A stretch of 64,000 nucleotides of DNA from an uncultured Acidimicrobiia bacterium (lineage in GTDB: Bacteria; Actinomycetota; Acidimicrobiia; Spongiisociales; UBA11373), in the NCBI GenBank assembly GCA_964614095.1, contig CAZTJO010000002.1, forward strand, positions 32,043-96,042. The letters run 5' to 3'. The notes below the pieces were generated by a model. That model ran no database searches, was not told where the DNA came from, and saw only the letters and a program-made list of their open reading frames with translations. The first letter of the stretch is position 1. Each line of letters begins with the position of its first letter. A program made the translations under genes and the position numbers. Positions 13,118 through 53,991 of this stretch are shown here, in pieces.

Positions 13118-14323
13118 ATGAGGCGAATCGATCTGCAGCGTGCCCGGCGGCTGGCACTCGGCGCACAGGGGCTTGCCGAGCCCCGCCCCTCGGGCCGGGT
13201 CGATGTACGCCATCTGCGCCGGCTGATGCGCCGCATCGGGGCGCTCCAGATTGATTCGGTGAATGCCATCGAGCGGGCGCACCACCTCACCTTGTTCTCC
13301 CGGCTGGGAAGCCACGACCGCAGCCTGCTGTGGCGCGCGTTTGAGAACCACCGGCTTCTGTTCGAGTACTGGGGTCACGAGGCGTCGTTTCTTCCCATCG
13401 AGGACTACCCGCTGTTCCGGCACCGCATGGACGAGATGCACCCGTGGGTCAGGGTGGATCGGCTGAACCGGGAGCACCCGGGCTATGTGGAGCGGGTTCT
13501 CGATGAGGTGCACGAGGTGGGTCCGGTGGGCGCCGCCGACCTCTCCGACCCCGGCGAGTGCAAAGGCCCGTGGTGGGGCTGGAACCGCGGCAAGGTGGCC
13601 CTGGAGTGGCTGTTCGCCACCGGCAGGCTCGCCATCGCCGGGCGGCACAATTTCGCCCGTCGCTACGACGTGCCGGAACGGGTGATCCCGCCTGAGTATC
13701 TCCAGGCACCGCCGGTGCCACGCCCCGAGGCACATCGGCGCCTGCTGTTGATGGCGGCGCGCGCCTGTGGGGTGGCTACGGCCAAGGACCTGGCCGACTA
13801 CTACCGGATTCCCCTAGTGGCGGCGCGCCTCGCTCTCGCCGCCCTGGCCGAGGAGGGGACGCTGGAGCTTGTGGAAGTCGAGGGCTGGCGGCAGCCCGCC
13901 TACGTGCATCCGGAGGTGCCGGTGCCGCGCCGGCCGAGTCGGGCTGCCCTGCTGTGCCCCTTCGACCCGGTCGTGTGGAACCGGGAGCGGGTGGAGCGGG
14001 TCTTCGGCTTCAGCTACCGGATCGAGATCTACGTGCCTCGGCCCCAGCGCCGCTGGGGCTACTACGTCCTCCCGTTTCTGCTTGGGGATCGGCTGGTGGC
14101 CCGGGTTGATGTCAAGGCCGATCGCAGCCGCGGCTTGCTGCTGGTGCCCGGGGCCTTCATCGAGTCGGGGGAAGAGCCGGGCCGAGTGGTGCCGCCCCTG
14201 GTCGCAGAGCTGGAGCACCTGGCGTCCTGGCTCGGCCTCGAGGCGGTGACGGTTGGCGAATTCGGAGATCTGGCCCCGCCGCTGCACCGGGCATTCCCAG
14301 ATCGGCATGTATCACAGGACTAG
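13118..14323 (+). CDS. YcaQ/AlkZ-family winged-helix DNA glycosylase (DUF1006; interstrand-crosslink unhooking)
   Basis: ~400 aa with the N-terminal wHTH architecture of DUF1006. Contains RIGALQIDSVN, i.e. a Q-Phi-D catalytic motif of YcaQ type. Confidence 0.65.
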   Translation: MRRIDLQRARRLALGAQGLAEPRPSGRVDVRHLRRLMRRIGALQIDSVNAIERAHHLTLFSRLGSHDRSLLWRAFENHRLLFEYWGHEASFLPIEDYPLFRHRMDEMHPWVRVDRLNREHPGYVERVLDEVHEVGPVGAADLSDPGECKGPWWGWNRGKVALEWLFATGRLAIAGRHNFARRYDVPERVIPPEYLQAPPVPRPEAHRRLLLMAARACGVATAKDLADYYRIPLVAARLALAALAEEGTLELVEVEGWRQPAYVHPEVPVPRRPSRAALLCPFDPVVWNRERVERVFGFSYRIEIYVPRPQRRWGYYVLPFLLGDRLVARVDVKADRSRGLLLVPGAFIESGEEPGRVVPPLVAELEHLASWLGLEAVTVGEFGDLAPPLHRAFPDRHVSQD

Positions 14324-14363
14324 CCTCGGCCGAGGAGAGCGCGGCGAGTCAAGGAGGTCGGGG

Positions 14364-15266
14364 ATGATCGAGTTCCAGGACCGTGTCGCCATCGTCACCG
14401 GTGCCGGGCGGGGGCTCGGTGCCAGCCATGCCAGATTGCTGGCTTCCAGAGGAGCCGCCGTCGTCGTCAACGACTCCGGGGTCGCCGCCGATGGGAGTGG
14501 CGCCGAGACCCGACCCGCCGACGAAGTGGTTGCCGAGATAACCGAGGCGGGCGGCACCGCCGTTGCCGACTACTCCTCGGTAGCCGAGCCGGCCGGCGGC
14601 GAGGCCGTCGTGGCCACGGCCGTCGACGAATACGGGCGGATGGACATCCTCGTGAACAACGCCGGCATACTGCGCGACAAGGCCTTTCACAACCTGGAGT
14701 GGCCCGATGTCGATGCGGTGCTTGATGTACACCTGAGGGGCTCCTTTTTTGTCACCCGGCCTGCTCTCAGGGTCATGCGTGAGCAGTCGTACGGACGTAT
14801 CGTCATGACTGCGTCTAATGCGGGCATCCTGGGCAATTTCGGTCAGTCGAACTACGGCGCGGCCAAGATGGGCGTCGTCGGCCTCGCCAACGTTCTCAAG
14901 CTCGAGGGGGCCAAGTACAACATCAGGGTCAACGTGCTGGCTCCTGTGGCCCGCACCCGGATGACCGAGCAGCTTCTGGGACCGGTGGCGGAGAAGCTTG
15001 ATCCCGAGATGGTCTCGCCCGTGGTGGCGTTCTTCTGCTCCGAGGAGTGCGCGTTCACCGGAGAGATCTGGTCGGTGGCCGGCGGCAATGTGAGCCGCTT
15101 CTTCATCGCCCGCACCACCGGCTACTTCAAACCTCCAGCGGAGGGGCCTCTCAGCGTTGAAGACGTCGCCGCCAACGTGGACCGAATTCGTGACGAGGCC
15201 GACTATTCGGTGCTCGGGTCTGCCACCGAGGAGCTGCAGGCTCTGGCGCCCCGGCTCTTCTCGTAG
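14364..15266 (+). CDS. SDR-family oxidoreductase (MFE-2/FabG-like short-chain dehydrogenase)
   Basis: TGAGRGLG cofactor motif, NNAG, and the catalytic S...YxxxK (SNYGAAK). AAGGAGG RBS 7 nt upstream of ATG 14364. Confidence 0.85.
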   Translation: MIEFQDRVAIVTGAGRGLGASHARLLASRGAAVVVNDSGVAADGSGAETRPADEVVAEITEAGGTAVADYSSVAEPAGGEAVVATAVDEYGRMDILVNNAGILRDKAFHNLEWPDVDAVLDVHLRGSFFVTRPALRVMREQSYGRIVMTASNAGILGNFGQSNYGAAKMGVVGLANVLKLEGAKYNIRVNVLAPVARTRMTEQLLGPVAEKLDPEMVSPVVAFFCSEECAFTGEIWSVAGGNVSRFFIARTTGYFKPPAEGPLSVEDVAANVDRIRDEADYSVLGSATEELQALAPRLFS

Positions 15267-15269
15267 CCG

Positions 15270-17552
15270 GTGTTGCGGCCAGCATCCACAGCAGGCAAGG
15301 CCGAGTGGCGAGAGTGGGGGCGCGCCATACGATCCGGGCTCGACCTGCACGCCATCTCGATGCATATCGTCGGTGGACTGCGCCGCTGGGGAGGCCTGCC
15401 CGGTGCCCGAGTGCTGCTCTATCAGCCTCTCCCCGATGAGCCGGATATCACCGCACTCCGCTTCGAAGCGGCGTCGTTCCTGACCCGTACCCCCGAGCGT
15501 GGTGAGCTCACCGTGCATCCCTTCGCGGGCCCGATGGAGCGGCACCGCTTCGGTTTCTTGCAGCCGAGGGATTCGGCGCCCGTGGTGGACCCGGCGCAGA
15601 TCGATGTAGCCCTGGTGCCCGGCGTCGTATTTGATGCTCAGGGGGTGCGCCTGGGGCGGGGGTCGGGATACCTCGATCGGTTCCTGGCCCGTCTCCGCCC
15701 CGACGCGCTCCGCATCGGAGTGGCCCCCTCGGAACTCGTTGTTGATCGGTTGCCCGTCGCCGAGCACGACGTCCCGATGACCCACCTCGCCACCGAGGCG
15801 GGTGTGGCGGCCGTAGGTGATGCGCTCGGGGCGGCGCTTCCGGAGGAGCTGCTGGTGAAGACGCGGGCCTGGATTGCCGGTGATCCCGACCCGGAGACCC
15901 GGGCGCAGCTGGAGCGCCTCATTGCGCTCGGCGCGGTCGACGAGCTGTCGGAACGTATGGCGGGCAGCCTCGAGTTCGGTACCGCAGGGATTCGTGGGGC
16001 GGTGGAGGCCGGCTCGAATCGAATGAATCGGGCCACGGTGATCCGAACCACAAAGGGATTGGCCGACTACCTCATCGAATTTCGGCCCGAGGGCGGGCCG
16101 GTGGTAGTGGGCTACGACGCCCGGCTCAGCAGCCCGACTTTTGCCGCCGACGCCGTTGCCGTGCTTGTTGCCGCCGGCATTCCCGTGCGGTATTTCGAGG
16201 AGCCGGTTCCCACCCCGCTTGTGGCCTACGCCGCACGTGTCTTCGGAGCCCGGGCTGCGGTGGTGGTGACGGCCAGCCACAATCCGCCGCGGGACAACGG
16301 CTACAAGGTGTACGACGCCAACGCCGCTCAGATCATCCCGCCGGTGGATACCGAGATTGCCGATTCCATCGAACGGGTGGGGGCCGCCGCCGATGTCCCC
16401 CGCTGTGAAGGAGCGCTTGAGGGGGAAAACGAACAGGCCGTGCCGATCGAGCCGGCGTGGCAAGAGAGATACGTCGACGATCTCCTCGGGATCCGGCCAC
16501 AAGGTGAGGCCGACCGCGATCTGTGCATCGTCTACTCGCCGCTGCACGGCGTGGCCGGACACCTGGCCGAGCGGTCGCTCGCCGCCGCCGGCTACCACGA
16601 GGTGCACACGGTCCCGGAACAGGCCGAGCCCAACGGCCGTTTCCCCACGGTCCCTTTCCCCAATCCCGAAGAGCCCGGCGCTCTAGACCTCGCCCTCGGC
16701 CTCGCCGGCGACGTCGGCGCCGATTTGGTGCTCGCCAACGATCCCGACGGTGACCGGCTCGCCGTCTGCCTCCCCGGCCCGGAAGGGTGGGTGCATCTCA
16801 CCGGCAACCAGACCGGCATCGTGCTCGGGGACTTCCTCCTCGAGAAGTATGCGGGCGAGGCTCCTCCACTGGTGATCAGCAGCATCGTCTCCTCGCCGAT
16901 GCTGGCGGCCGTCGCTGCTGCTCACGGGGCTCGCTACGAGTCCACCCTCACCGGGTTCAAGTGGATCGCCAATGCCGCTCTTGATCTCGAGGAGGCCGAG
17001 GGGCTGGAGTTCGTCTTCGGGTACGAAGAGGCCATCGGGTACACGGTGGGCCGGCTGGTTCGGGACAAGGACGGTGTCTCCGCCGCCGTGGTCTTTGCCG
17101 ATCTGGTGGCACAGGATCGGGCACGGGGAAAAACGGTCTTTGATCGCCTGGAGCGCCTGTACCGGCAGCATGGGCTCTGGGTCGGCACCCAGCTCAGTGT
17201 GATGCGGCCTGGTGAGCAGGGGGCGGCCGAGATCAATGCCGCCATGGACGGGTTGGCGGAGCACACCCCGGCGGTGCTCGGCGGATTTGAGGTCGATGCG
17301 GTTCTCGATTTTCGCGCCGGCGCCGAGAAACGTCCCCGGTGGCTGCCGGCGGCGGCGCTCGTCGTTTTTGATCTCGGGGCGGCGGGCCGGGCCCTGGTCC
17401 GGCCCAGCGGCACCGAACCCAAACTGAAGATCTACGTCGACCTACGCCGTGAGCTCGGGGCCGGCGACGAGCCGAGCGGCGCCGAGGCGGCGGCCCGGGA
17501 CCAGGCGGGACGGATTGCCTCGGATCTCGCCAAGTTCCTCGGATTCAGCTAG
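15270..17552 (+). CDS. In-frame fusion: N-terminal 5-formyltetrahydrofolate cyclo-ligase domain (~aa 1-180) + C-terminal phosphomannomutase/phosphoglucomutase
   Basis: The 5-FCL signature FDAQGVRLGRGSGYLDRF (GxGxGYYDR) and HDVPMTHLATE lie at the domain end. They are followed, without a stop, by the alpha-D-phosphohexomutase active site TASHNPPRDNGYKV and Mg loop. Confidence 0.8.
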   Translation: MLRPASTAGKAEWREWGRAIRSGLDLHAISMHIVGGLRRWGGLPGARVLLYQPLPDEPDITALRFEAASFLTRTPERGELTVHPFAGPMERHRFGFLQPRDSAPVVDPAQIDVALVPGVVFDAQGVRLGRGSGYLDRFLARLRPDALRIGVAPSELVVDRLPVAEHDVPMTHLATEAGVAAVGDALGAALPEELLVKTRAWIAGDPDPETRAQLERLIALGAVDELSERMAGSLEFGTAGIRGAVEAGSNRMNRATVIRTTKGLADYLIEFRPEGGPVVVGYDARLSSPTFAADAVAVLVAAGIPVRYFEEPVPTPLVAYAARVFGARAAVVVTASHNPPRDNGYKVYDANAAQIIPPVDTEIADSIERVGAAADVPRCEGALEGENEQAVPIEPAWQERYVDDLLGIRPQGEADRDLCIVYSPLHGVAGHLAERSLAAAGYHEVHTVPEQAEPNGRFPTVPFPNPEEPGALDLALGLAGDVGADLVLANDPDGDRLAVCLPGPEGWVHLTGNQTGIVLGDFLLEKYAGEAPPLVISSIVSSPMLAAVAAAHGARYESTLTGFKWIANAALDLEEAEGLEFVFGYEEAIGYTVGRLVRDKDGVSAAVVFADLVAQDRARGKTVFDRLERLYRQHGLWVGTQLSVMRPGEQGAAEINAAMDGLAEHTPAVLGGFEVDAVLDFRAGAEKRPRWLPAAALVVFDLGAAGRALVRPSGTEPKLKIYVDLRRELGAGDEPSGAEAAARDQAGRIASDLAKFLGFS

Positions 17553-17665: not shown

Positions 17666-18466
17666 GTGACGCAGAAGCGTCCTGCCCAGAAGCGGCCGGG
17701 GCCGGCAACTGCAGTGCCGCAGTCGGGTTCTGCCGCCGGTTCGGTATGGGTGATCCTGCCCACGTACAACGAGGCGGAGAACCTCGCCGAAGTCGTGGCG
17801 CGCGTGCTGGAGCACCCCTATTCCGTTCTTGTCGTCGATGACAACTCAGCGGATGGCACCGGTCGGCTCGCCGACGAGCTCGCCGCCGCGGAGCCGCGCC
17901 TCTCCGTGCTCCATCGCCCCGCCAAGCAGGGTCTCGGCCCGGCCTATGCCGAGGGTTTTGCTGTGGCCCTGGCCGCGGGCGCCGAGACACTCTGCGGAAT
18001 GGATGCCGATCTCTCTCACGATCCGGCCCAGCTCCCCACGCTTGTTGCCGCCATCGACAACGGGGCCGATCTCGCCATCGGGAGCCGGTTTGTGCCCGGC
18101 GGAGCCATCGAAGGATGGCCGCGCCGCCGGCGTTTCCTGTCCCGCGGGGGCAACCGCTACGCCCGTTTTATGCTTGGTACTCCGATGCGAGACCTCACCA
18201 GCGGCTTCCGCGCCTTCCGGGCGGACGCGCTGCGGCGACTCCGGGCCGATACCTGCCGTTCGGCGGGTTATGTCTTCCTGGTGGAGATGGCGTGGCGGGC
18301 GCATCTGCTCGGCTGCAAGGTTGTCGAGGTTCCGATCACGTTCCGGGAACGATGCCGAGGGGAATCCAAGCTCGACGGGCGCATCATTCGGGAGGCCATG
18401 TGGCTGGTGACCCGCTGGGGAATGGGAAGGCTGCTGCGGCGGCGGCCTGAGGGTTTTGCGACGTGA
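17666..18466 (+). CDS. ppm1: Polyprenol-phosphate mannose synthase (GT2; Ppm1/DPM1-like)
   Basis: VILPTYNEAENL, VVDDNSADGT and DADLSHDP motifs of GT2 dolichyl/polyprenyl-phosphate mannosyltransferases. Confidence 0.85.
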   Translation: MTQKRPAQKRPGPATAVPQSGSAAGSVWVILPTYNEAENLAEVVARVLEHPYSVLVVDDNSADGTGRLADELAAAEPRLSVLHRPAKQGLGPAYAEGFAVALAAGAETLCGMDADLSHDPAQLPTLVAAIDNGADLAIGSRFVPGGAIEGWPRRRRFLSRGGNRYARFMLGTPMRDLTSGFRAFRADALRRLRADTCRSAGYVFLVEMAWRAHLLGCKVVEVPITFRERCRGESKLDGRIIREAMWLVTRWGMGRLLRRRPEGFAT

Positions 18467-20074
18467 GTGCGGTCCCGGCGCCTTGGGGCGGGGCGGCTTG
18501 CCGGGCCGGTTTCGGGTAGAGGCACGGCGGTGAGTTCCGCGTCAACAGCGTCCGGGCCGGGTGCAAGTGGCGGCCGTTCGCTGTGGGGGCGGCTCGGCGA
18601 CGTTCGGCAGGACGGATGGGGCGGCGCCGGGCCGGGGGCAGCGGTGCTGCGGCTGGCCAAACGTATTGGGGCCCCGCGGCTCATCCTCGCCGGAGTGATG
18701 ATCACGTGGTTCATCGTTTTCGCCGTGCTCGTCTTCATGCGGCATGACCGTTTCGGCAGCTTCGGATTTGACCTTGGCATCTTCGACCAGTCGATCTGGC
18801 TGCACAGCCGCGGCGCCGGTTTCAACACGGTGCGCGGGATGCAGACGCTCGGCCACCACGGCTCGTTCGGGTTCTTCCTGCTGGTTCCGTTCTATTGGCT
18901 TGGCGCCGGTCCCCACTTCCTCAACCTGTTCCAGGTAGCTGTTGTTGTGCTCGGAGGAGTGCCTGTGTTCATGGCGGCAAAGCGTGTGCTCGGCAACGAG
19001 TGGCACGCGCTGATCCCGGCCATCGCCTTTGTCGTTAACGGGGTTCTGCAGTGGCATTTCCAGGAGATGTTCCATCCCGAGGTCATTGCCATCACGCCGT
19101 TCCTCTGTGCCTATGTGGCGGCTCAGCGCCGGCGCTGGCTCCCGTACGCCCTGTTCCTCGCCCTCGCTGTCTGCTGGAAGGAAGACGTTGCCTTGGCTGC
19201 GCTCATGCTGGGCGTCCTGCTCCTGTGGCGGGGGCAACGCAAGGTGGGCCTGCTGACGATGCTCGGTGCCGCCGCCTGGTTCGCCTTCGTCAACCAAGCG
19301 CTCATCCCTCTCTTCAACAGCGAGGGGGCGTTCTACGGGCAGTTTTTTGGTGATCTGGGCAGCTCGCCGATTGAGGTGATCGGTTCGGTGATCACCAACC
19401 CGGGCCTGATCCTGGAGCGGTTGTGGGAGGCCGATATCCTGTGGTACCTGTGGTATCTGGCCGTGCCCTTCGGCCTGCTGTCGTTCCTCTCTCCCGGGGT
19501 GCTGCTCATCGGGCTGCCGCAAATCCTCATCAACCTGCTGTCCGTCAATTCGTTCACCTGGGAATATAGGTTCCACTACGCCGCCCTTCCGGTGCTCGCC
19601 TTCACCATCGCCATGATCGAGGGCCTGGGGAAGTTCAGGCGCCTGCCGACGCGCCGTTTCGCTTTAGGCCTCATTGCCGTTCTGGGCCTGTGTTCCGTTG
19701 TTGTGATCGGCATCTCCCCGGTCAGTACCCACTTCCGAGACGGCCATTGGCCACTCGCCGGGAACCAGAGGCAGCAGGTTATGGAGCGTGCCCTGACGCT
19801 GCCGGGACCGGACGACACCGTCTCGGCCACCTACGGGTTTGTGCCCCACCTCACCCATCGGCACGAGATCTATGAGTTCCCCAACCCGTGGATCCCGTAC
19901 AACTGGGGGGTCAGGAATGAGAACCAGCGTTCTGCCGAATCGGTGGAGTGGCTTGTCGTCAACGAGTGGTCGATAGGGGAAGAGGATCGTGCCCTGGTCG
20001 ACACCATCGTGGCCGGGGAAGGGTGGGAAGTGGTGTTCTATGAGGAGGGCGTGCTTGTGGCGCAGCACAGATGA
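18467..20074 (+). CDS. Polytopic membrane protein, DUF2079-like (candidate GT-C-type glycosyltransferase using polyprenyl-P-mannose); N-terminal ~70 aa low-complexity, so the true start may be downstream
   Basis: Ten or more predicted TM helices with the FDLGIFDQSIW motif. Starts immediately after the ppm1 stop. Family call is from memory of DUF2079 and not verified. Confidence 0.5.
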   Translation: MRSRRLGAGRLAGPVSGRGTAVSSASTASGPGASGGRSLWGRLGDVRQDGWGGAGPGAAVLRLAKRIGAPRLILAGVMITWFIVFAVLVFMRHDRFGSFGFDLGIFDQSIWLHSRGAGFNTVRGMQTLGHHGSFGFFLLVPFYWLGAGPHFLNLFQVAVVVLGGVPVFMAAKRVLGNEWHALIPAIAFVVNGVLQWHFQEMFHPEVIAITPFLCAYVAAQRRRWLPYALFLALAVCWKEDVALAALMLGVLLLWRGQRKVGLLTMLGAAAWFAFVNQALIPLFNSEGAFYGQFFGDLGSSPIEVIGSVITNPGLILERLWEADILWYLWYLAVPFGLLSFLSPGVLLIGLPQILINLLSVNSFTWEYRFHYAALPVLAFTIAMIEGLGKFRRLPTRRFALGLIAVLGLCSVVVIGISPVSTHFRDGHWPLAGNQRQQVMERALTLPGPDDTVSATYGFVPHLTHRHEIYEFPNPWIPYNWGVRNENQRSAESVEWLVVNEWSIGEEDRALVDTIVAGEGWEVVFYEEGVLVAQHR

Positions 20075-21640
20075 GTGGGGCCGGAGCACCGGGCCGGCGG
20101 CAGGGCTTCGATGACTGAGCCTGCCAACGGCACCCGGAGCCGGGCGGACTCTCGGATCGACCCTCGCCTCCTGGCGAAGAGAGATCCTTTCATCGACGTC
20201 GTGCGGGTGGCATGCATCTGCATCGTTGTGTTCGGCCATTGGCTGACCACGACTGTGGTATGGGCCGACGGCGGCGTCGACGCGGTCAACGCGCTCGAAG
20301 TGATCCGGGCCGGCCGGCTGACCACTTGGCTGGTTCAGGTGATGCCGCTGGTGTTTTTTGTCGGCGGGTTTGCCAACGCGGTGAGCCTGTCTCGTCACCG
20401 CGGGTACCTGCCCTACCTGGAAGCGCGTTTGGGGCGGCTGCTGCGCCCCGCCTACGTGTTTCTTGCGGTGTGGCTCGCCGTTGCCGCCATCATCGAGATT
20501 GTGGACCCCGGCGCTCCGGGTAAGGCCGAGGCGGCGGAGGTGGCGGCGCTGCCGCTGTGGTTCCTCGGCATCTACGTCGTGGTGGTGGCGCTGGCGCCGG
20601 CGGCGTGGAGGCTGCACCAGCGGGCCCGCTTCACCACCATCATCGCCCTCGGTCTGGGCGTGGCCGTGGTGGACATCGTCTCCCTTGGAGGCGGGATGAC
20701 CGACCTGGGCGGTCTCAACTACGCCCTCATGTGGATCCTGGCGCATCAGATCGGCTTTCTCTACGCCGATGGGACGCTGGGGCGTCTGGGTTGGCGCGGG
20801 GCCGCCCTGCTTGCCGGTGCCGGCCTGGCCGGGCTTGTCCTTCTTACCACCGTCGGCAATTACCCGGTGAGCCTGGTCGGGGTGCCCGGGCAGGCTCGGT
20901 CGAACGCGCAGCCTCCCAGCGTTGCCATGGTCGCCCTCACTGTGTGGCTCCTGGGCCTGGCTCTCCTGCTTCGCCACCCCGTCCGGCGGCTGTTGTCCCA
21001 CCGCTGGTTCTCTAGTGCGGTGACTCGAATCCACGCCGTGGTGCTGACGATGTTCCTTTGGCATGTGACCGCCATCTCGGTGGCCGGAGGGGTTTGGCAC
21101 TCCGTGGGCCTGCCTGAGCCGGAGATCGGCTCCCTGCAGTGGTGGGCGCTGCGTCCGCTGTGGCTGCTGATGGCGGTGATTCCTTTGGCGGCGCTGCTTC
21201 TTGTGTTCGGCCGCATCGAGAGGCACCCGGAGGGCAAGCCGGGAGGGCTCTCGGCCGGGCGGGCGGCCGCGGCCGGCTTCGGCGTGTTTGCCGTCGCCAT
21301 CGGCGTGCTCGGCTTCGGCGAAACGGGTTTTTTGCCGCTGGCGCCTGCCCAGGGTGAGGCTCTGCTCATGTTCGACCTGAATCCGCTGCAGAACGTCTTT
21401 CACCTTCTTGTAGGGACCGCCGTGGTACTAACGCTGCGGCGCGGGAGGGCGCCATCCGCCGCGGTGGCGCTGGTCGGAGCCCTACTTTTTGTGGGTTTTG
21501 GGCTGCTGGCGATCTTGGGCTGGGGAATCGTCGACCCGCTCGGTATGGACGGATTCACCGGCGACGCCCACATCGTCGCCGGGGGCGCCGCTGTGCTCTT
21601 GCTGCTCGTGGTGCTGGCGCTGGAACGAGTCAGGAGCTGA
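20075..21640 (+). CDS. Acyltransferase family 3 (integral membrane O-acyltransferase)
   Basis: RDPFIDVVRVACICIVVFGHW N-terminal signature of acyltransferase_3, with many TM helices. Start may be ATG 20111. Confidence 0.7.
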   Translation: MGPEHRAGGRASMTEPANGTRSRADSRIDPRLLAKRDPFIDVVRVACICIVVFGHWLTTTVVWADGGVDAVNALEVIRAGRLTTWLVQVMPLVFFVGGFANAVSLSRHRGYLPYLEARLGRLLRPAYVFLAVWLAVAAIIEIVDPGAPGKAEAAEVAALPLWFLGIYVVVVALAPAAWRLHQRARFTTIIALGLGVAVVDIVSLGGGMTDLGGLNYALMWILAHQIGFLYADGTLGRLGWRGAALLAGAGLAGLVLLTTVGNYPVSLVGVPGQARSNAQPPSVAMVALTVWLLGLALLLRHPVRRLLSHRWFSSAVTRIHAVVLTMFLWHVTAISVAGGVWHSVGLPEPEIGSLQWWALRPLWLLMAVIPLAALLLVFGRIERHPEGKPGGLSAGRAAAAGFGVFAVAIGVLGFGETGFLPLAPAQGEALLMFDLNPLQNVFHLLVGTAVVLTLRRGRAPSAAVALVGALLFVGFGLLAILGWGIVDPLGMDGFTGDAHIVAGGAAVLLLLVVLALERVRS

Positions 21641-23293: not shown

Positions 23294-24957
23294 CAGAACG
23301 TCCCCAGTCCCGGGGTGCGAAAACGTTCGATCAGGAAGATCGAGATGGCGGTGACGATCATCAGGATGACACTCATCGCCATTGCCCGGCCGAAGTTGAA
23401 CGCTCCCGGCTGGCCCAGGAAGCGGTAGATGGCCAGCGGAAGCGTCTGAGATGTCTGGGGCCGGGCTACGAGTGAGGTAGCGCCAAATTCGCCGAGTGAG
23501 ACGGCAAAGGCGAAGCCGGCTCCGACGGCGGTGGCGCGCGCCACGATGGGCAGATCTATCTCGCGCCACACGCGGTGGGGCGGGGCGCCGAGCACGGCGG
23601 CCGCCTCGCGCAGGCGCTGGCGCACCGAACGCATCACCGGCACCACGGAACGCACCACAAAGGGCACGGCCACCAGGGCATGGGCGAGCGGGATCAGGAT
23701 CCAGGAGGCGCGCAGGTCGATGGGGGCATCGAGGGCGACCAGGAAGCCGAAGCCGATGGTGACCGCGGAGGTCCCGAGGGGCAGCATTAACAGGGCGTCG
23801 AACCAGCGTGAAAGGCGGCCCCGCCTGCGGGCGATGACGGCGGCGGCACAGAGGCCGACGAGCAGCGCGATACCAGTGGCGACCACGGCGAATGAGGCCG
23901 AGTTGCTGATGGCCTTGATGGGATCGGCGATTTGGGCTCCGGTGCGGGTGCCCTCGCCGAGATCCCGGTAGAAGCCGAAACCGTAGCCGGCCTCGCCGTG
24001 CAGCGATCGTTCCACCAGCACGGCGATGGGCCCGCCGAGCAGGAGAGCCATCGAGGCGAGCACACCGGCGACCAGGGCGCGCTGGCCGCGGGTGCGCGGC
24101 CGGGTCGCTACCTCGGCGGCGGGTCGCAGGCCCTGCTCTACCGCGCTGCGCTCCTGATACCGGGAATAGGCGGTGAGGATGGCGGTGACCCCGATCATCT
24201 GGATGATCGCCAACACGGCGGCCGTGGGGAGATCCAGAAGCTGTTTGGCCTGGCGGTAGATCTCCACCTCCAGCGTGGCCAGCCCGGGCCCGCCGAGGAT
24301 CAGGACCACGCCGAACGAGGTGAAGGTGAAGAGGAAGACGATCGAGGCGGCGGCGGCAATGGCGGGACGCAGCAGGGGCAGGGTGACGCCGGTGAAGGCC
24401 CGCCACCGGCTGGCTCCCAGTGAGCGGGCCGCCTCCTCGAGGGCGGGATCCAGATGGGACCACAGGCCGCCGACGGTGCGCAGGACGACGGCGTAGTTGA
24501 AGAACACATGGGCGGCGAGGATGGCCCAGATGGTCCCGTCGAGATCTACGCCCAGCAGTCCGTTGCTCCCCACGAGTGCCAGGAACGCGGTGCCGACGAC
24601 AACCGTGGGGAGCACAAAGGGCACGGTGGCCGCGGCCCGCAGGAAACGTTTGCCGGGAAAGTCATAGCGGGCGAAGACGTAGGCGCCGGGAAGGGCGACG
24701 ATGAGGGTGAGCACGGTCGAGGCGGCGGCCTGCCACAAGGTGAACCAGGCTACGCCGAGCAGGTCGGCGTTGGTGAGCACCTCACGCAGCGATGTGAAAT
24801 CGAATCGGCCGCCGGGGGAGAGGCTGGTGAAGATGATCGAGGCCACCGGCCATATGAAGAACATGGCCAGGAAGGCCAACGGAATCGCGGCCAGCGCCGC
24901 AATGGCCCAGGAGAATCGCCTCACCGCACCACTATTGTCGTCCACTCGTCGAGCCAA
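23293..24957 (-). CDS. thiP: Thiamine/iron-type ABC transporter permease with two fused transmembrane domains (ThiP-like)
   Basis: Two repeats of the binding-protein-dependent transport EAA-loop pattern (EEAARSLGASRWRAF... and REAAAVLGAPPHRVWREI...). 554 aa with about 12 TM helices. Confidence 0.85.
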   Translation of the reverse strand: MARRVDDNSGAVRRFSWAIAALAAIPLAFLAMFFIWPVASIIFTSLSPGGRFDFTSLREVLTNADLLGVAWFTLWQAAASTVLTLIVALPGAYVFARYDFPGKRFLRAAATVPFVLPTVVVGTAFLALVGSNGLLGVDLDGTIWAILAAHVFFNYAVVLRTVGGLWSHLDPALEEAARSLGASRWRAFTGVTLPLLRPAIAAAASIVFLFTFTSFGVVLILGGPGLATLEVEIYRQAKQLLDLPTAAVLAIIQMIGVTAILTAYSRYQERSAVEQGLRPAAEVATRPRTRGQRALVAGVLASMALLLGGPIAVLVERSLHGEAGYGFGFYRDLGEGTRTGAQIADPIKAISNSASFAVVATGIALLVGLCAAAVIARRRGRLSRWFDALLMLPLGTSAVTIGFGFLVALDAPIDLRASWILIPLAHALVAVPFVVRSVVPVMRSVRQRLREAAAVLGAPPHRVWREIDLPIVARATAVGAGFAFAVSLGEFGATSLVARPQTSQTLPLAIYRFLGQPGAFNFGRAMAMSVILMIVTAISIFLIERFRTPGLGTF

Positions 24958-26021
24958 GCCTCACGGTTGGCGTCGATTGTGGCCGGGTCGATGGTCAGGG
25001 GGCTCCGGGGCACCGAGGTGTTCTCCAGAAACTCGGCGGGGAGATCGGCTTTGGCGTTGGCCGGGTACATGTACATGTTGAGCGGGATGTCTTCCTGGAA
25101 CCGCTCCGAGAGCATGAAGTCGATGAGCAGCGCTGCGCCTTCGGGATTGGCGGCGCCGCGCAGGATGCCGGCAAACTCGATCTGACGAAAGCAGCCTTCG
25201 CTGACAACAGCGGTGGGCGCCTCCTCGAGGGGTTCCTCGGCGTTGATGATCTCGGCCGGAGGCGACGAGGCATAGGAGACCACGATAGGGCGGTCACCGG
25301 TGCCCGAGCCTCCGGAGAATGCTCCGTAGTAGGCGGTCTCCCACCCATCGGTGACGAGCACGTCGTTGTTTCTCAGATCGGCCCAGTAGTCGCGCCAGGT
25401 GTAGTCGGCGTCCTCGGGGAAAGTGGCGATGGTGGCGAGCAGGAAGGCGAGGCCGGGAGAGGACGTTGCCGGATTCTCGACGACGAGTTTGCCCGCGTAG
25501 GCCGGGGCGACCAGATCCAGGAGAGTTCCGGGCGGGGCCAGAGCGTCGAAAGCCTCCTTGTCGTAGTTGAGGCAGACGTCGCCGTAGTCAATCGGGGTGG
25601 CCCGGAACTCCGGGTCAAGCTGCAGCTCTGCAGGCACATCGGCCAGGCCGGGACTCTCATAGGGGACCAGGACGTCGTTGTCGAGGGCGCGCGAGAGAAA
25701 GGTGTTGTCCACTCCAAAGATCACATCGGCAAAGGGATTCCCTGCGGTGAGTATCGCCTGGTTGAGCACCAGGCCGGCGTCACCGGCGGCGAGGATCTCG
25801 ACCTCGAAGCCGGTGGCGGCGGTGAATTCGTCGAGCACTGCCTCGGAAACGAGGAACGAATCGTGGGTGAGGAGGCGCACGACGCCGGCCGGCGTCGAAG
25901 AAGAGGTGGCTTCTTCAACGCCGGCGGACGTCGTTGGTGCCCCACCCGTTGCCGTGGCGTCGTCACCGCAGGCGGTGGCGGCAAAGACGAGAACCGAAAG
26001 CGCGGCAATCCGTGCCCTCAC
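24921..26021 (-). CDS. tbpA: Thiamine ABC transporter substrate-binding lipoprotein (TbpA/ThiB-like)
   Basis: Signal peptide with lipobox (VLVFAATAC|GDD) and periplasmic-binding-protein fold segments. GTG start at 26021 overlaps the TPK stop (GTGA). Confidence 0.75.
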   Translation of the reverse strand: MRARIAALSVLVFAATACGDDATATGGAPTTSAGVEEATSSSTPAGVVRLLTHDSFLVSEAVLDEFTAATGFEVEILAAGDAGLVLNQAILTAGNPFADVIFGVDNTFLSRALDNDVLVPYESPGLADVPAELQLDPEFRATPIDYGDVCLNYDKEAFDALAPPGTLLDLVAPAYAGKLVVENPATSSPGLAFLLATIATFPEDADYTWRDYWADLRNNDVLVTDGWETAYYGAFSGGSGTGDRPIVVSYASSPPAEIINAEEPLEEAPTAVVSEGCFRQIEFAGILRGAANPEGAALLIDFMLSERFQEDIPLNMYMYPANAKADLPAEFLENTSVPRSPLTIDPATIDANREAWLDEWTTIVVR

Positions 26022-26665
26022 ATCTGCCGCCCCACTCGGATGACGATGAGCACTCCCTCGTCCACGATGATCGTGGCCGAGTGACCGGTCAATTCGTTGC
26101 TTACCCCCCGAGTGGAACCTGGTGAGAGAGTCTCGCTGGCCAGGGGCCAACGGAGATTGTTTGAAGAGACGCCCTGGGCGGGCCCACCGGCGGCAAGGAG
26201 GGTCACTTTGTCGCCGGGCTCTCCCCGGAGTACGACCCGGTCGTGCACGATGGCCACGTGCGCTCCCTTGACCCACCAGCGCGGACGAAGGCCGGCAAAT
26301 CGAGGGGAGGCAAGCAGGAGGGCGTTGGCCAGCAAATGGTCGATGCGGTCCCATCCCGCGCCCCCCACCACGATTGCAGGAGAGAGACCGCGGGCAGCTG
26401 CGGCCTCCAGTGCCAGTTCGAGATCGGAGACGTCCTTGTCCTCCGGATGGCGCTCGATTTTGGCGCCCGCTTCGGTTGCTGCGGCGAGCTCGGCCGGATC
26501 GGCCGAATCCAGGTCACCGACGACCAGATCCACGTTGACCTTGAGGCCGATTGCGGTGTGGAGGCCCGAGTTGGCGGCGATCACGAACGCATCGCTCGGA
26601 AGCATGGGGGACACGTCGCGCGTCACCGGATCGCCCCCGGCGAAGATGATGACTGGCGTCTCCAT
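26018..26665 (-). CDS. thiN: Thiamine pyrophosphokinase (TPK)
   Basis: 215 aa with VIIFAGGDP N-terminus and VVGDLDSADP (GDxDS Mg site). First gene of the operon downstream of the TPP riboswitch. Confidence 0.75.
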   Translation of the reverse strand: METPVIIFAGGDPVTRDVSPMLPSDAFVIAANSGLHTAIGLKVNVDLVVGDLDSADPAELAAATEAGAKIERHPEDKDVSDLELALEAAAARGLSPAIVVGGAGWDRIDHLLANALLLASPRFAGLRPRWWVKGAHVAIVHDRVVLRGEPGDKVTLLAAGGPAQGVSSNNLRWPLASETLSPGSTRGVSNELTGHSATIIVDEGVLIVIRVGRQM

Positions 26666-26770
26666 GGCTCCCTCCGCTGGAATTACCCAGATCAGGTTCC
26701 GCGGGTCGGTGACGTTGCCTTGCGGCCGGCCACCCTCTCAGCTCGGCTAGCCCGAGCTCCCCGGAGCCCT
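26666..26770 (-). ncRNA. TPP (thiamine pyrophosphate) riboswitch controlling TPK-tbpA-thiPQ
   Basis: Minus strand reads ...GGGGAGCUCGGGCUAGCCGAGCUGAGAGGGUGGCCGG...GCGGAACCUGAUCUGGGUAAUUCCAGCGGAGGGAGCC-AUG. It has the conserved CUGAGA and ACCUGAUCUGGGUAAUnCCAGCGnAGGGA cores. The SD (GGAGGGAG) is embedded in the 3' end, immediately 5' of the TPK ATG. Confidence 0.85.
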
Positions 26771-26822
26771 TCAATCGTACCACTGGGGCTGTGGACAAGT
26801 TCGTGGTAGGGGGGGCCGTGCC

Positions 26823-53139: not shown

Positions 53140-53991
53140 ATGCCCCAGGTGGCCACCATCGACTTCCACGTCACCTCGGAGTGCAACGAAGAGTGCGTCT
53201 ATTGCTGGGGCCCGCAGGGAATCGAGGAGGTCGATACCGCGACGGCCGAGGCCATCGTGACCCGCATTGCCGCCAATGGAGCGCGGCGCATCGTGTTCAC
53301 CGGCGGCGATCCGCTCAAGCGGAATGACATCGGATCGCTTATCAAGCTGGCCGGCCGCGTCGGACTTGAGGTGGCCGTCTCCACCACCGGCGACGAGTTG
53401 ACCGCCGAGTTCCTGAAAGAGCACGCCGGGCATATCGACCTGGTCTCGCTGCCGCTCGACGGGCCCAACGAGGAGGTGTCGTCGCGCACCAAAAAGGCCG
53501 GGCATTTCGCTGCGGTGATGCGAGCACTGGAAATGCTGGCTCTCCATCGGGCCATCGACGTCAAGGTGGCGACTCCGGTGACCCGACACAACCTCGACCA
53601 CGTGCCCGACATCGCGACCCTGCTCGACACGCGGGCTGCCGGCATGCCCAACCGTCTCTTCTACAACGTGTTCCAGGCGTTTCCCCGCTCGATGGACGCA
53701 GATGTCCCCTGGGAGGACTTGGTGGTGACCTCCGCCGAGTTCGCCGCCCTTCGGGAGCAGGTGGAGCTGGCACCTCACCGTTTCCGCATCAATTGGCTGA
53801 GCCACGAGACGCTCGACCGGCTGTACGTCATGGTGTTTCCTGATGGCACCCTCACCATTCCGGTCGGCGGCCGGTACGTCGGCTATGGGCCGTTTCTCGA
53901 GGTCGAGGATCTCGATACCGTGCTCGAGCAGGCCTCCTTCGACATCGCCAAACACCTGCTGCACGCTGAGGGCTGGCAACGGTCGGGGTGA
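53140..53991 (+). CDS. Radical SAM enzyme with a single [4Fe-4S] cluster (CX3CX2C; only three Cys in the protein); specific family undetermined
   Basis: TIDFHVTSECNEECVYC (CX3CX2C), IVFTGGDPL (GGE-like motif), VSLPLDG. 283 aa with no SPASM or auxiliary Cys cluster. Confidence 0.8.
   Translation: MPQVATIDFHVTSECNEECVYCWGPQGIEEVDTATAEAIVTRIAANGARRIVFTGGDPLKRNDIGSLIKLAGRVGLEVAVSTTGDELTAEFLKEHAGHIDLVSLPLDGPNEEVSSRTKKAGHFAAVMRALEMLALHRAIDVKVATPVTRHNLDHVPDIATLLDTRAAGMPNRLFYNVFQAFPRSMDADVPWEDLVVTSAEFAALREQVELAPHRFRINWLSHETLDRLYVMVFPDGTLTIPVGGRYVGYGPFLEVEDLDTVLEQASFDIAKHLLHAEGWQRSG

Follow-up and report, generated by a model that had tools for sequence, protein, structure and literature searches.

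Validated members of the 5-formyltetrahydrofolate cyclo-ligase family (5-FCL or MTHFS, EC 6.3.3.2), such as the human enzyme (3HXT/3HY3) and that of M. pneumoniae (1U3G), carry the motif GYYD. The closest solved structure to the module described here is that of the stand-alone 184-aa protein TT1367 from Thermus thermophilus HB8 (1WKC). According to PMC3223725, PMC5041015 and PMC4120688, one paralog in COG0212 has no 5-FCL activity, is implicated in thiamin salvage and is routinely mis-annotated as 5-FCL; it is referred to as the At1g76730 type (Pribat et al. 2011, as cited in PMC3223725 and PMC5041015). Deinococcaceae have a single COG0212 gene, the 'Gram-positive version', which Thermus also has; the extra Thermus paralog is of the archaeal type (PMC1274311).

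The Acidimicrobiia also possess stand-alone 573-aa proteins named 'phospho-sugar mutases', which share with the mutase described here an N-terminal helical '…AWIAGDPDP…' extension and the four catalytic loops, but have no N-terminal 5-FCL module. The long-form mutases of this class presumably resemble the PGM2/PgcA/mycobacterial PmmB (Rv3308) type. For mycobacterial PmmB, PMM activity and an effect on LM/LAM have been described (PMC3229593).

In the window (the whole stretch of 64,000 nucleotides that was analysed, from an uncultured Acidimicrobiia bacterium) a 5-FCL is covalently followed by a 570-aa mutase. A preliminary description of the locus had read it as a complete 5-FCL fused in frame to a complete long-form phosphohexomutase, and had offered a genuine bifunctional protein, a lost stop codon and a sequencing error as explanations. 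The reading as a fusion is borne out by the open reading frame (ORF), the Pfam domains and the catalytic motifs.

Results

The fusion ORF and its start codon

The uninterrupted ORF starts with GTG 3 nt past the stop codon of the upstream SDR gene and encodes one 760-aa protein, in which a linker about 6 residues long connects a 5-FCL module (aa 1-182) to a four-domain alpha-D-phosphohexomutase (aa ~189-760; Table 1). In Pfam, PF01812 (5-FCL) covered aa 47-176 (E 4e-23) and the PGM_PMM domains I-IV covered aa 235-723 (E 6e-39 to 2e-6), and because of these E-values a chance ORF was ruled out. An exact copy of the ORF was found in two further assemblies (JGI and Logan; loci L090/L091, which are re-assemblies of the window). 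The same 760-codon ORF, again with GTG 3 nt past the SDR stop, was present in loci L086 and L087, which are 82-83% identical. We concluded that the fusion ORF is genuine and not an error. A 752-aa antisense shadow ORF was noticed at 14349..16607; chance ORFs do arise in this 68% GC DNA.

Public records of the clade to which the window belongs place the start codon too far downstream, giving proteins of 713 or 730 aa instead of 760 aa, so that the conserved Lys/Arg pair at the N-terminus of the 5-FCL is missing from them. Since the K10/R14 motif lies 5' of the database start (M31), GTG at 15270 was taken as the real start. Fusion proteins of 737-758 aa are publicly named either '5-formyltetrahydrofolate cyclo-ligase' or 'phosphomannomutase', and either label conceals half of the protein.

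Table 1. Features of the fusion gene and its upstream neighbour, in window coordinates.
Feature	Position	Strand	Basis or remark
Upstream SDR gene, 301 aa	14361..15266	+	Pfam adh_short; conserved 5' neighbour of 5-FCL across Acidimicrobiia
Fusion ORF	15270..17552	+	GTG start, 760 codons + stop, uninterrupted
5-Formyltetrahydrofolate cyclo-ligase (MTHFS) module, aa 1-182	15270..15815	+	PF01812, TIGR02727, 1WKC alignment
N-terminal K10-x-x-W-R14 motif	15297..15311	+	Aligns to human MTHFS K10/R14
Gly-rich catalytic loop G129-R-G-S-G-Y-L-D-R137	15654..15680	+	Aligns to human MTHFS G147..D154
Junction/linker, ~aa 183-188 (GDALGA)	15816..15833	+	Between homology to stand-alone 5-FCLs and to stand-alone mutases
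Long-form alpha-D-phosphohexomutase module, aa ~189-760	15834..17549	+	PGM_PMM I-IV; 573-aa stand-alone homologs begin here
Phosphoserine loop T334-A-S336-H-N-P339	16269..16286	+	Invariant in 64 sequences
Metal-binding loop D491-P-D493-G-D495-R496	16740..16757	+	D491, P492, D493 and R496 invariant in 64 sequences; D495 at least 90%
Sugar-binding loop G584-Y-E586-E587-A-I-G590	17019..17039	+	G584, E586, E587, A588 and G590 invariant in 64 sequences
Phosphate-binding loop R711-P-S-G-T-E-P717	17400..17420	+	R711 to E716 invariant in 64 sequences

The linker and possible internal starts

It had been stated at first that the 5-FCL runs into the mutase without a stop or linker. There is indeed no stop, but a short linker is present, at which the pLDDT of the AF2 model dips to ~70 (aa 181-190); for the whole chain the model reached pLDDT 93.5 and pTM 0.80, with both folds predicted confidently. 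Among fused relatives the linker varied in length and sequence, and dN/dS for aa 179-197 was 0.46-1.5.

An internal start at GTG 15804 or GTG 15855 could yield free mutase in addition to the fusion protein. Such dual products would be compatible with a fusion of neighbouring genes, and we consider them unlikely. GTG 15804 has GAGG 5 nt before it and GTG 15855 is preceded by GGAG, and an ancestral Met codon is kept, as a vestige, in the linker of some fused relatives (L006-L008). When the region before VAAVGDALG was checked for an internal start or RBS, as had been proposed, the RBS and GTG were found merely to encode the conserved T-E-x-G-V end of the 5-FCL. GAGG…GTG is obligatory coding of this end, and split genes have it just the same, although their mutase does not start there; it is therefore not evidence of a start in the window. 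As to GTG 15855, it was not conserved in L086 or L087.

The 5-FCL module

The bacterial MTHFS equivalog TIGR02727 (cutoff 84.9 bits) matched aa 1-185 with 95.7 bits and the full protein with 91.3 bits. The cutoff was passed by 8 of 8 modules tested, comprising fused, split and stand-alone forms and the Thermus and Meiothermus orthologs; the value of 95.7 was the lowest of the eight, the relatives scoring 100-120 bits. Residues 10-182 aligned collinearly to the full length of TT1367 (E 1.5e-29). K10, R14, E57, R127, R130 and D136 were invariant in the family, K10 and R14 in fused, split and stand-alone members alike. Except for E57 these residues align to human MTHFS K10, R14, R145, R148 and D154, which we take to be binders of the ATP phosphates and Mg.

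The glycine-rich signature, described earlier as GxGxGYYDR, reads GRGSGYLDR in the window, so that the organism has GYLD where the validated enzymes have GYYD. Y134 aligns to human Y152 and L135 to human Y153. Across 87 loci the second Tyr position was occupied by Y in 73, by F in 12 and by L in this organism only; the first position varied as well (Y, F or H), and most fused relatives have GHYD. For the 5-FCL core the dN/dS was 0.085-0.154. Judged by sequence, the N-terminal module is predicted to be a canonical bacterial 5-FCL. Another 5-FCL-like match, at 53278-53553 on the minus strand, was weak, lay antisense to a radical-SAM gene and was dismissed as chance.

We also considered whether the N-terminal module, instead of being a genuine 5-FCL, behaves like the thiamin-linked COG0212 paralog, with which it shares the fold family and the default '5-FCL' annotation; this is very unlikely. 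In its favour, the window lacks the second Tyr of GYYD, and thiamin genes lie nearby: 4.7-9 kb downstream are a TPP riboswitch, a thiamine diphosphokinase gene and an ABC transporter operon of the thiamin type. Homologous transporter clusters lie 1.1-4.1 kb from the 5-FCL in L002, L005, L086 and L092, and near it in L017, L033, L039 and L068. The thiamin operon is, however, convergent with the fusion and not co-transcribed with it, and it stays in place in L001 despite the absence of the 5-FCL there; the proximity therefore looks like block synteny. The paralog is of archaeal/plant type, whereas the window module scored as canonical bacterial MTHFS in common with all modules tested, and the best 80 related loci were all bacterial, including Deinococcaceae. 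The window module thus falls outside the archaeal/plant-type COG0212 clade.

The mutase module

PF02878, PF02879, PF02880 and PF00408 were all above cutoff, consistent with the four-domain architecture, and the AF2 model matched the mutase fold in Foldseek searches (TM to target 0.74-0.86). The TASHNP active site reported earlier is present, with S336, and so are the other three mutase loops. The module was 66-69% identical to the 573-aa stand-alone 'phospho-sugar mutases', and its dN/dS was 0.127-0.147. The two modules retain their catalytic motifs and experience purifying selection of equal strength (dN/dS about 0.1-0.15).

The mutase had been labelled a phosphomannomutase, for the supply of a GDP-mannose precursor. 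The mutase module did not reach any NCBIfam equivalog cutoff for PMM, PMM/PGM, PGM or GlmM (bits against cutoff: NF007088, 55.9 vs 618; NF011943 CpsG, 38.8 vs 801; NF046027, 73.9 vs 600; PGM, 66.6 vs 778; GlmM, 106 vs 447). Foldseek and sequence searches of the PDB returned only generic mutase matches at ~20% identity, which did not resolve the specificity. 'Phosphomannomutase' is consequently not supportable as a specific label on the sequence evidence. Downstream of the fusion lie a GT2 gene (polyprenyl-P-hexose-transferase-like, below all cutoffs) and a DUF2079 gene, confined to the subclade of the window; they provide weak context for a phosphomannomutase role.

Conservation of the fusion and gene states at the locus

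We compared 121 sequences, namely the window protein and its 120 best matches. The fused architecture was present in 53 of them, at lengths of 698-760 aa and down to 54% identity; all fusion carriers with names were Acidimicrobiia/Actinomycetota MAGs. The fusion also occurs in complete genomes such as CP129495.1. According to precomputed annotation, the database matches with the fusion carry PF01812 and PGM domains. The fused ORF was verified in the DNA of eight loci besides the window and its re-assemblies (L002, L006, L007, L008, L010, L086, L087 and L092). The same fusion thus exists in related genomes, as the preliminary description had suggested looking for, and the 5-FCL is a separate upstream gene in some relatives only. 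A literature search for a 5-FCL/mutase fusion gave an irrelevant proteomics list as its only match.

Three states were found among the relatives: fused genes, split genes and the mutase alone. In split relatives the genes share a 4-nt ATGA overlap (L004) or are separated by 1 nt (L005). Between fused L092 and split L004 the difference is one G within a G-run; the evidence that L004 is split is a single short contig and the length of a homopolymer. In L001 the mutase holds the slot and the 5-FCL is absent. Fused and unfused forms interleaved in a neighbour-joining tree that was midpoint-rooted and unbootstrapped.

The SDR gene lies directly 5' of fused, split or stand-alone 5-FCL genes in many loci (L002, L005-L013, L015, L017, L018, L086, L087 and L092), and stand-alone 5-FCL orthologs fill the same SDR/AlkZ slot in many Acidimicrobiia. 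Most orthologous 5-FCLs were stand-alone and unlinked to any mutase. Where the mutase occurred elsewhere, it stood in a different gene context. The genes around the fusion form a functional patchwork. In relatives the SDR gene adjoins an enoyl-CoA hydratase gene, and we presume that its product resembles MFE-2-type hydroxyacyl-CoA dehydrogenases. An OarX-type thiamin SDR was rejected as identity of the upstream gene, for which NCBIfam gave generic SDR/FabG-like matches only, all below cutoff.

Both partners also occur in other fusions. In the sister Acidimicrobiia L033, L039 and L068 an orthologous N-terminal 5-FCL, as in the window protein, has a tRNA_edit (YbaK-like) domain, i.e. an aminoacyl-tRNA editing domain, as its partner in proteins of 333-338 aa in total, whereas the partner in the window is the mutase; in each case the 5-FCL has joined the gene that happens to follow it. 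All three lie near the same thiamin-type transporter, and L068 occupies the same syntenic locus as the window 5-FCL, with AlkZ upstream. Elsewhere the mutase has RlmN-like, DeoC or epimerase domains as fusion partners. One further sequence (P0133) has a 197-aa N-terminal extension in which no Pfam domain was found and which did not look 5-FCL-like by eye.

Discussion

The explanation we favour, and regard as probable, is an opportunistic fusion of neighbouring genes that resulted in a conserved bifunctional protein whose halves act independently. The 5-FCL would be an old resident of the slot directly after the SDR gene. In one sublineage the mutase gene, whose location is different in other Acidimicrobiia, would have become its downstream neighbour, the two genes sharing overlapping stop and start codons (ATGA), and a 1-nt indel would then have set them in one frame. 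In the resulting protein the 5-FCL module would convert 5-formyl-THF, a dead-end and inhibitory folate, to 5,10-methenyl-THF at the expense of ATP. The mutase module would transfer phosphate between C1 and C6 (or C5) of its substrate, which may be a mannose, glucose or pentose phosphate, via phospho-Ser336 and a bisphosphate intermediate. A short, poorly conserved tether of ~6 residues links the modules. We infer that the two act in unrelated pathways and that the fusion merely fixes their co-expression. Its persistence down to 54% identity may mean that selection favours it for more than co-expression, and the whole-chain pTM of 0.80 would be compatible with a defined interface between the modules.

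Of the three explanations offered in the preliminary description, the genuine bifunctional protein is thus the one supported, by the conserved architecture and by purifying selection on both halves. The lost stop codon holds as evolutionary history, in view of the split relatives and the ATGA overlap, but not as a recent lesion, with dN/dS of 0.09-0.15 in both halves. The sequencing error is refuted by the exact ORF in the JGI and Logan assemblies and by the architecture found in the other sequences and loci.

Alternatively, the fusion may be functionally coupled in the Rosetta-stone sense, either with the 5-FCL-fold ATP module serving the mutase or with both halves feeding one pathway; we regard this as highly improbable. 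Fusion or tight adjacency lasts across the clade, the tether is short, the pTM of the whole chain is high, and the DeoC aldolase fused to one mutase homolog hints at pentose-phosphate roles in the mutase family. On the other hand, the 5-FCL module scores above the cutoff of the canonical MTHFS equivalog, residues aligned to the folate and ATP ligands of validated enzymes are retained in it, and the linker is unconstrained. Moreover, most orthologous 5-FCLs stand alone, the closest mutase clade does without a 5-FCL in the same slot, and an unrelated YbaK-like domain fuses to the 5-FCL at the same locus. The module could serve the mutase by regulation, by using ATP to prime or re-phosphorylate Ser336, or by synthesis of the bisphosphate cofactor; the pair could also supply one-carbon units (methenyl-THF) and ribose-5-P for purines, if the mutase were a pentomutase. 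An accessory that primes the serine or makes the sugar-bisphosphate activator, or a purine-supply unit, is likewise highly improbable.

Finally, the notion of separate genes, joined by an error or by a very recent stop loss that left a decaying 5-FCL remnant, is essentially refuted: one base in a G-run, a type of site prone to homopolymer errors, can separate a fused from a split form, and gene callers disagree on the start, but the window junction (…GGT GTG GCG GCC GTA GGT GAT GCG CTC GGG GCG GCG CTT CCG…) is free of long homopolymer runs and shows no sign of a stop/start overlap, the exact ORF recurs in the two other assemblies, L086 and L087 keep the 760-codon frame despite a dS of ~0.7-0.9, and the 5-FCL core is under purifying selection.

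Were the two activities coupled, folate repair and sugar-phosphate metabolism would be linked in an unexpected way in Acidimicrobiia; the evidence points the other way. With fusion of neighbouring genes as the probable origin, the locus presents a natural series: in compact genomes of high GC content, where stop and start codons overlap, one base toggles between two genes and one fusion. That one gene has fused with different neighbours is a caution against taking every Rosetta-stone fusion as a functional linkage.

Occurrence of the fused gene

The exact 2,283-bp ORF joining the 5-formyltetrahydrofolate cyclo-ligase (5-FCL) and the phosphohexomutase was recovered in the JGI metagenome contig 3300031281 and in the Logan assembly of SRR8556427, which were made with different assemblers from possibly shared raw data. 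When the window protein was compared together with its 120 best database matches, 53 of the 121 sequences were 698–760 aa long and covered both modules, with identities down to 54%. These both-module matches carried PF01812 and the PGM domains. A sequencing error, one of the options in the preliminary description, is refuted by these observations. The fusion was found again in relatives: L086 and L087, the nearest ones (82–83% identical), contained the same 760-codon frame, and on shared synteny L002 and L092 were fused as well as L086, L087 and the window, so that 5-FCL is not a separate upstream gene in all relatives. At 50% identity clustering the fused family collapsed to a single representative, P0045, and was thus regarded as one moderately diverse clade. 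We concluded that the fusion is a real, conserved and lineage-restricted join of two well-known enzymes. It is already in public databases, only half-annotated there, as the named matches were called either [quoted passage not shown] or, at JGI, "phosphomannomutase".

Features at the fusion locus (window positions unless a locus is named) and related fusions in other genomes
Feature	Position or accession	Strand	Remarks
AlkZ-like DNA glycosylase	13118-14323	+	PF06224, E 2.5e-69; upstream of SDR
SDR gene	14361-15266	+	immediately upstream of fusion
Fusion ORF	15270-17552	+	760 aa, GTG start (ORF list)
Miscalled start region	15270-15410; L086/L087 9860-10000
GT2, polyprenyl/dolichyl-phosphate hexose transferase-like	17666-18466	+	below all cutoffs
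DUF2079 membrane protein	18467-20074	+	start 1 nt past GT2 stop codon
Acyl_transf_3/DUF4383 protein	20075-21640	+
ABC ATPase with TOBE_2 domain	22259-~23400	-
Double-length permease	23296-24957	-
Solute-binding protein, thiamin-type transporter	24924-26354	-
Thiamine diphosphokinase (TPK)	26021-26665	-	TIGR01378, 122.5 vs 76.4
TPP riboswitch	26654-26773	-	RF00059, 60 bits vs gathering score 54.3; heads operon
5-FCL::YbaK-type fusions	L033:956-1957, L039:41-1042, L068:6001-7017		in-frame
Alternative mutase fusions	P0132, P0229, P0200		mutase homologs
Mutase locus with RlmN-like neighbour	L088/L089 7001-8731		RlmN-like gene upstream of mutase

Reading frame and start sites

Pfam placed the 5-FTHF cyclo-ligase domain at aa 47–176 and four PGM/PMM domains at aa 235–723 (E 6e-39 to 2e-6 for these four). 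The GC content around the ORF was ~68%, and the plus strand was assigned as coding because the Pfam domain statistics decide, despite long chance ORFs. A 752-aa antisense ORF (14349–16607, minus strand) extended over the SDR gene and half of the fusion, the first one. This frame had no domain support and is a typical high-GC shadow ORF, not counted as a gene. The single frame described earlier was indeed uninterrupted over 760 aa, but the modules are not joined without a linker, since a short one exists.

The GTG start lay 3 nt past the TAG of the preceding SDR gene, which suggests that the two genes may be translationally coupled; in L002 the SDR gene and the fusion start overlapped by 4 nt. 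In public gene calls P0001, identical to the window protein, starts at M31 (730 aa), and P0002 and P0003 start at codon 48 (713 aa). As L086 and L087 share the 760-codon frame and the GTG position, we regarded these shorter versions as start-site miscalls. The downstream starts remove a conserved N-terminal K-x-x-W-R motif (K10/R14), which aligned from residue 3 of the stand-alone 184-aa Thermus protein TT1367 (1WKC) and to K10/R14 of human MTHFS.

It is unlikely that a free mutase is produced beside the fusion from an internal start. The GAGG…GTG at 15795–15806 resembles such a start, but it is the coding sequence of the conserved T-E-x-G-V end of 5-FCL and was also present in split genes, whose mutase start is elsewhere. 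A second GTG at 15855, with GGAG ahead of it, was not conserved in L086 or L087.

Conservation of the two modules

K10, R14, E57, D59, R127, G129, R130, G131 and D136 of the 5-FCL module were invariant among the aligned members, whether these were fused, split or stand-alone. Profile alignment to human MTHFS matched R127, R130, Y134, L135 and D136 with R145, R148, Y152, Y153 and D154. The loop reads G-R-G-S-G-Y-L-D-R and not GYYDR as first described. Its second aromatic was Y in 73 and F in 12 of the 87 loci listed, and L occurred among these only in the window organism, which is a caveat for, though probably not disqualifying of, the 5-FCL identity. The complete mutase described from its TASHNP active site was borne out: the phosphoserine loop (S336) was accompanied by the metal (DPDGDR), sugar (GYEEAIG) and phosphate (RPSGTEP) loops, and all four were invariant in 64 sequences except for D495, which was at least 90% conserved.

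Nei-Gojobori dN/dS values between the window, L086 and L087 were 0.085–0.154 for the 5-FCL core, 0.127–0.147 for the mutase, 0.17–0.46 for aa 1–47 and 0.46–1.5 for the junction. An AlphaFold2 model of the fusion (64 sequences) reached a mean pLDDT of 93.5 and a pTM of 0.80, with a drop to ~70 solely in the block aa 181–190. Judged from sequence, both modules appear functional; they are constrained and neither is decaying.

Identity of the 5-FCL module

From the literature a COG0212 paralog is known that bears the annotation 5-FCL, has no such activity and is found clustered with genes for thiamin (PMC3223725, PMC5041015, PMC4120688). Convergent with the fusion and 4.7–9 kb downstream of it, we found an operon headed by a TPP riboswitch, predicted to be a thiamin uptake and activation unit. 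This operon lay much nearer to the fusion or 5-FCL in L002, L005 and L092; the homologous transporter cluster was syntenic in L002, L005, L086 and L092, and so was TPK where the locus reached. That the N-terminal module is such a paralog and not a true 5-FCL is nevertheless a minor alternative and very unlikely. All eight tested members exceeded the cutoff of TIGR02727, the canonical NCBIfam equivalog for bacterial MTHFS (84.9 bits; 91.3 for the whole fusion and 95.7 for aa 1–185), the relatives among the matches listed were bacterial, including Deinococcaceae, and the thiamin operon was still present in L001, where 5-FCL is lost. The COG0212 protein of Deinococcaceae is the shared bacterial version only, the extra Thermus paralog being archaeal-type (PMC1274311).

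Substrate of the mutase

None of the NCBIfam equivalogs PMM, PMM/PGM, PGM and GlmM was approached by the mutase, and the earlier label phosphomannomutase is too specific. The best solved relatives were ~20% identical and included PGM, PMM/PGM, an archaeal phosphopentomutase and GlmM. PMM activity is on record for PmmB of mycobacteria, an actinobacterial mutase of the long form (PMC3229593). The GT2, DUF2079 and Acyl_transf_3 genes downstream may form an envelope-glycan module. The first two were found only in the subclade of the window (L086; GT2 also in L090 and L091, re-assemblies of the window locus), and the Acyl_transf_3 gene was also found 3' of the mutase in L001 and L092. The GT2/DUF2079 context weakly favours a hexose-1-phosphate role in envelope glycan synthesis. 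In the wider family a fusion to a DeoC-type aldolase hints at pentose-phosphate metabolism. The defensible name is phospho-sugar mutase.

Origin of the fusion

A scan of species-representative genomes with a 5-FCL-only profile gave at least 80 loci, and each of those listed was classified. Among the matches listed only four new fused loci were found (L006, L007, L008 and L010); the remaining ones, which came from Acidimicrobiia, from Deinococcota (Thermus, Meiothermus, Trueperaceae) and from a small number of further phyla, were stand-alone genes of ~180 aa, and none of these had a mutase gene within 6 kb. Many stand-alone orthologs of Acidimicrobiia occupied the syntenic slot of the fusion, in the conserved block IMS polymerase, acyltransferase (minus strand), AlkZ-like, SDR, 5-FCL (L009, L011–L013, L015, L017, L018) or with 5-FCL directly after AlkZ (L014, L022, L024, L067, L068). 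In relatives an enoyl-CoA hydratase gene lay between the acyltransferase and AlkZ, apparently absent from the window. Across Acidimicrobiia the SDR gene was conserved immediately 5' of 5-FCL, whether the latter was fused, split or stand-alone; the SDR matched generic SDR/FabG-like models only (best NF005861, 254 bits vs cutoff 373) and presumably resembles MFE-2-type hydroxyacyl-CoA dehydrogenases. The mutase of other Acidimicrobiia sits elsewhere, after MazG, an RlmN-like gene and biotin carboxylase. Because stand-alone 5-FCL keeps the slot and the mutase lies elsewhere in the others, we regarded 5-FCL as the old resident and the mutase as the newcomer.

On the synteny shared with the fused loci the genes were split in L004, with a 4-nt overlap (GC-ATGA), and in L005, with a 1-nt separation; L001 had the mutase only, 47 bp past the SDR gene. 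Fused, split and mutase-only states were interleaved in a neighbour-joining tree of the mutase part, which is indicative only because the tree was midpoint-rooted and unbootstrapped. The window mutase was nearer to a 573-aa stand-alone clade (66–69%) than to most fused members. Between fused L092 and split L004 (89% DNA identity) the junction differed by one G of a G-run, GTC GGG GGC ATG AAC versus GTC GGG GCA TGA, and the ancestral Met codon persisted in the linker of several fused relatives.

Both modules have other partners. In other Acidimicrobiia 5-FCL was fused to a YbaK-type tRNA_edit domain (PF04073) in proteins of 333–338 aa, which in L068 took the fusion's own slot after AlkZ and in L033 and L039 lay beside the same thiamin-type transporter; a YbaK-type gene was found at least two genes downstream of the mutase in L002, L005 and L092. 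The mutase family was elsewhere fused to an RlmN-like radical-SAM domain, a DeoC-type aldolase and an NAD-dependent epimerase. The surroundings of the fusion were a patchwork of PNPase, Y-family polymerase, methyltransferase, acyltransferase, AlkZ glycosylase, SDR, GT2, DUF2079 and acyltransferase-3 genes. Since each module fuses to other partners and the surrounding genes are functionally mixed, the observations speak against a specific link between 5-FCL and the mutase. It is highly improbable that the 5-FCL-fold module, which depends on ATP, is truly coupled to the mutase, as their union in one chain might imply.

The architecture is undescribed, though not a new kind of system. The genuine bifunctional protein, another of the options offered earlier, was upheld as a real two-module fusion; bifunctionality, as far as can be read from the genes, is the best explanation, with modules that would be independent. 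Co-directional neighbours would readily be joined in genomes that are compact and high in GC and in which stop codons overlap with start codons, and a weld of 5-FCL and mutase that is harmless or mildly useful for co-expression would be retained. The fusion is thus probably an opportunistic one between neighbours, giving a bifunctional protein whose two parts would act independently.
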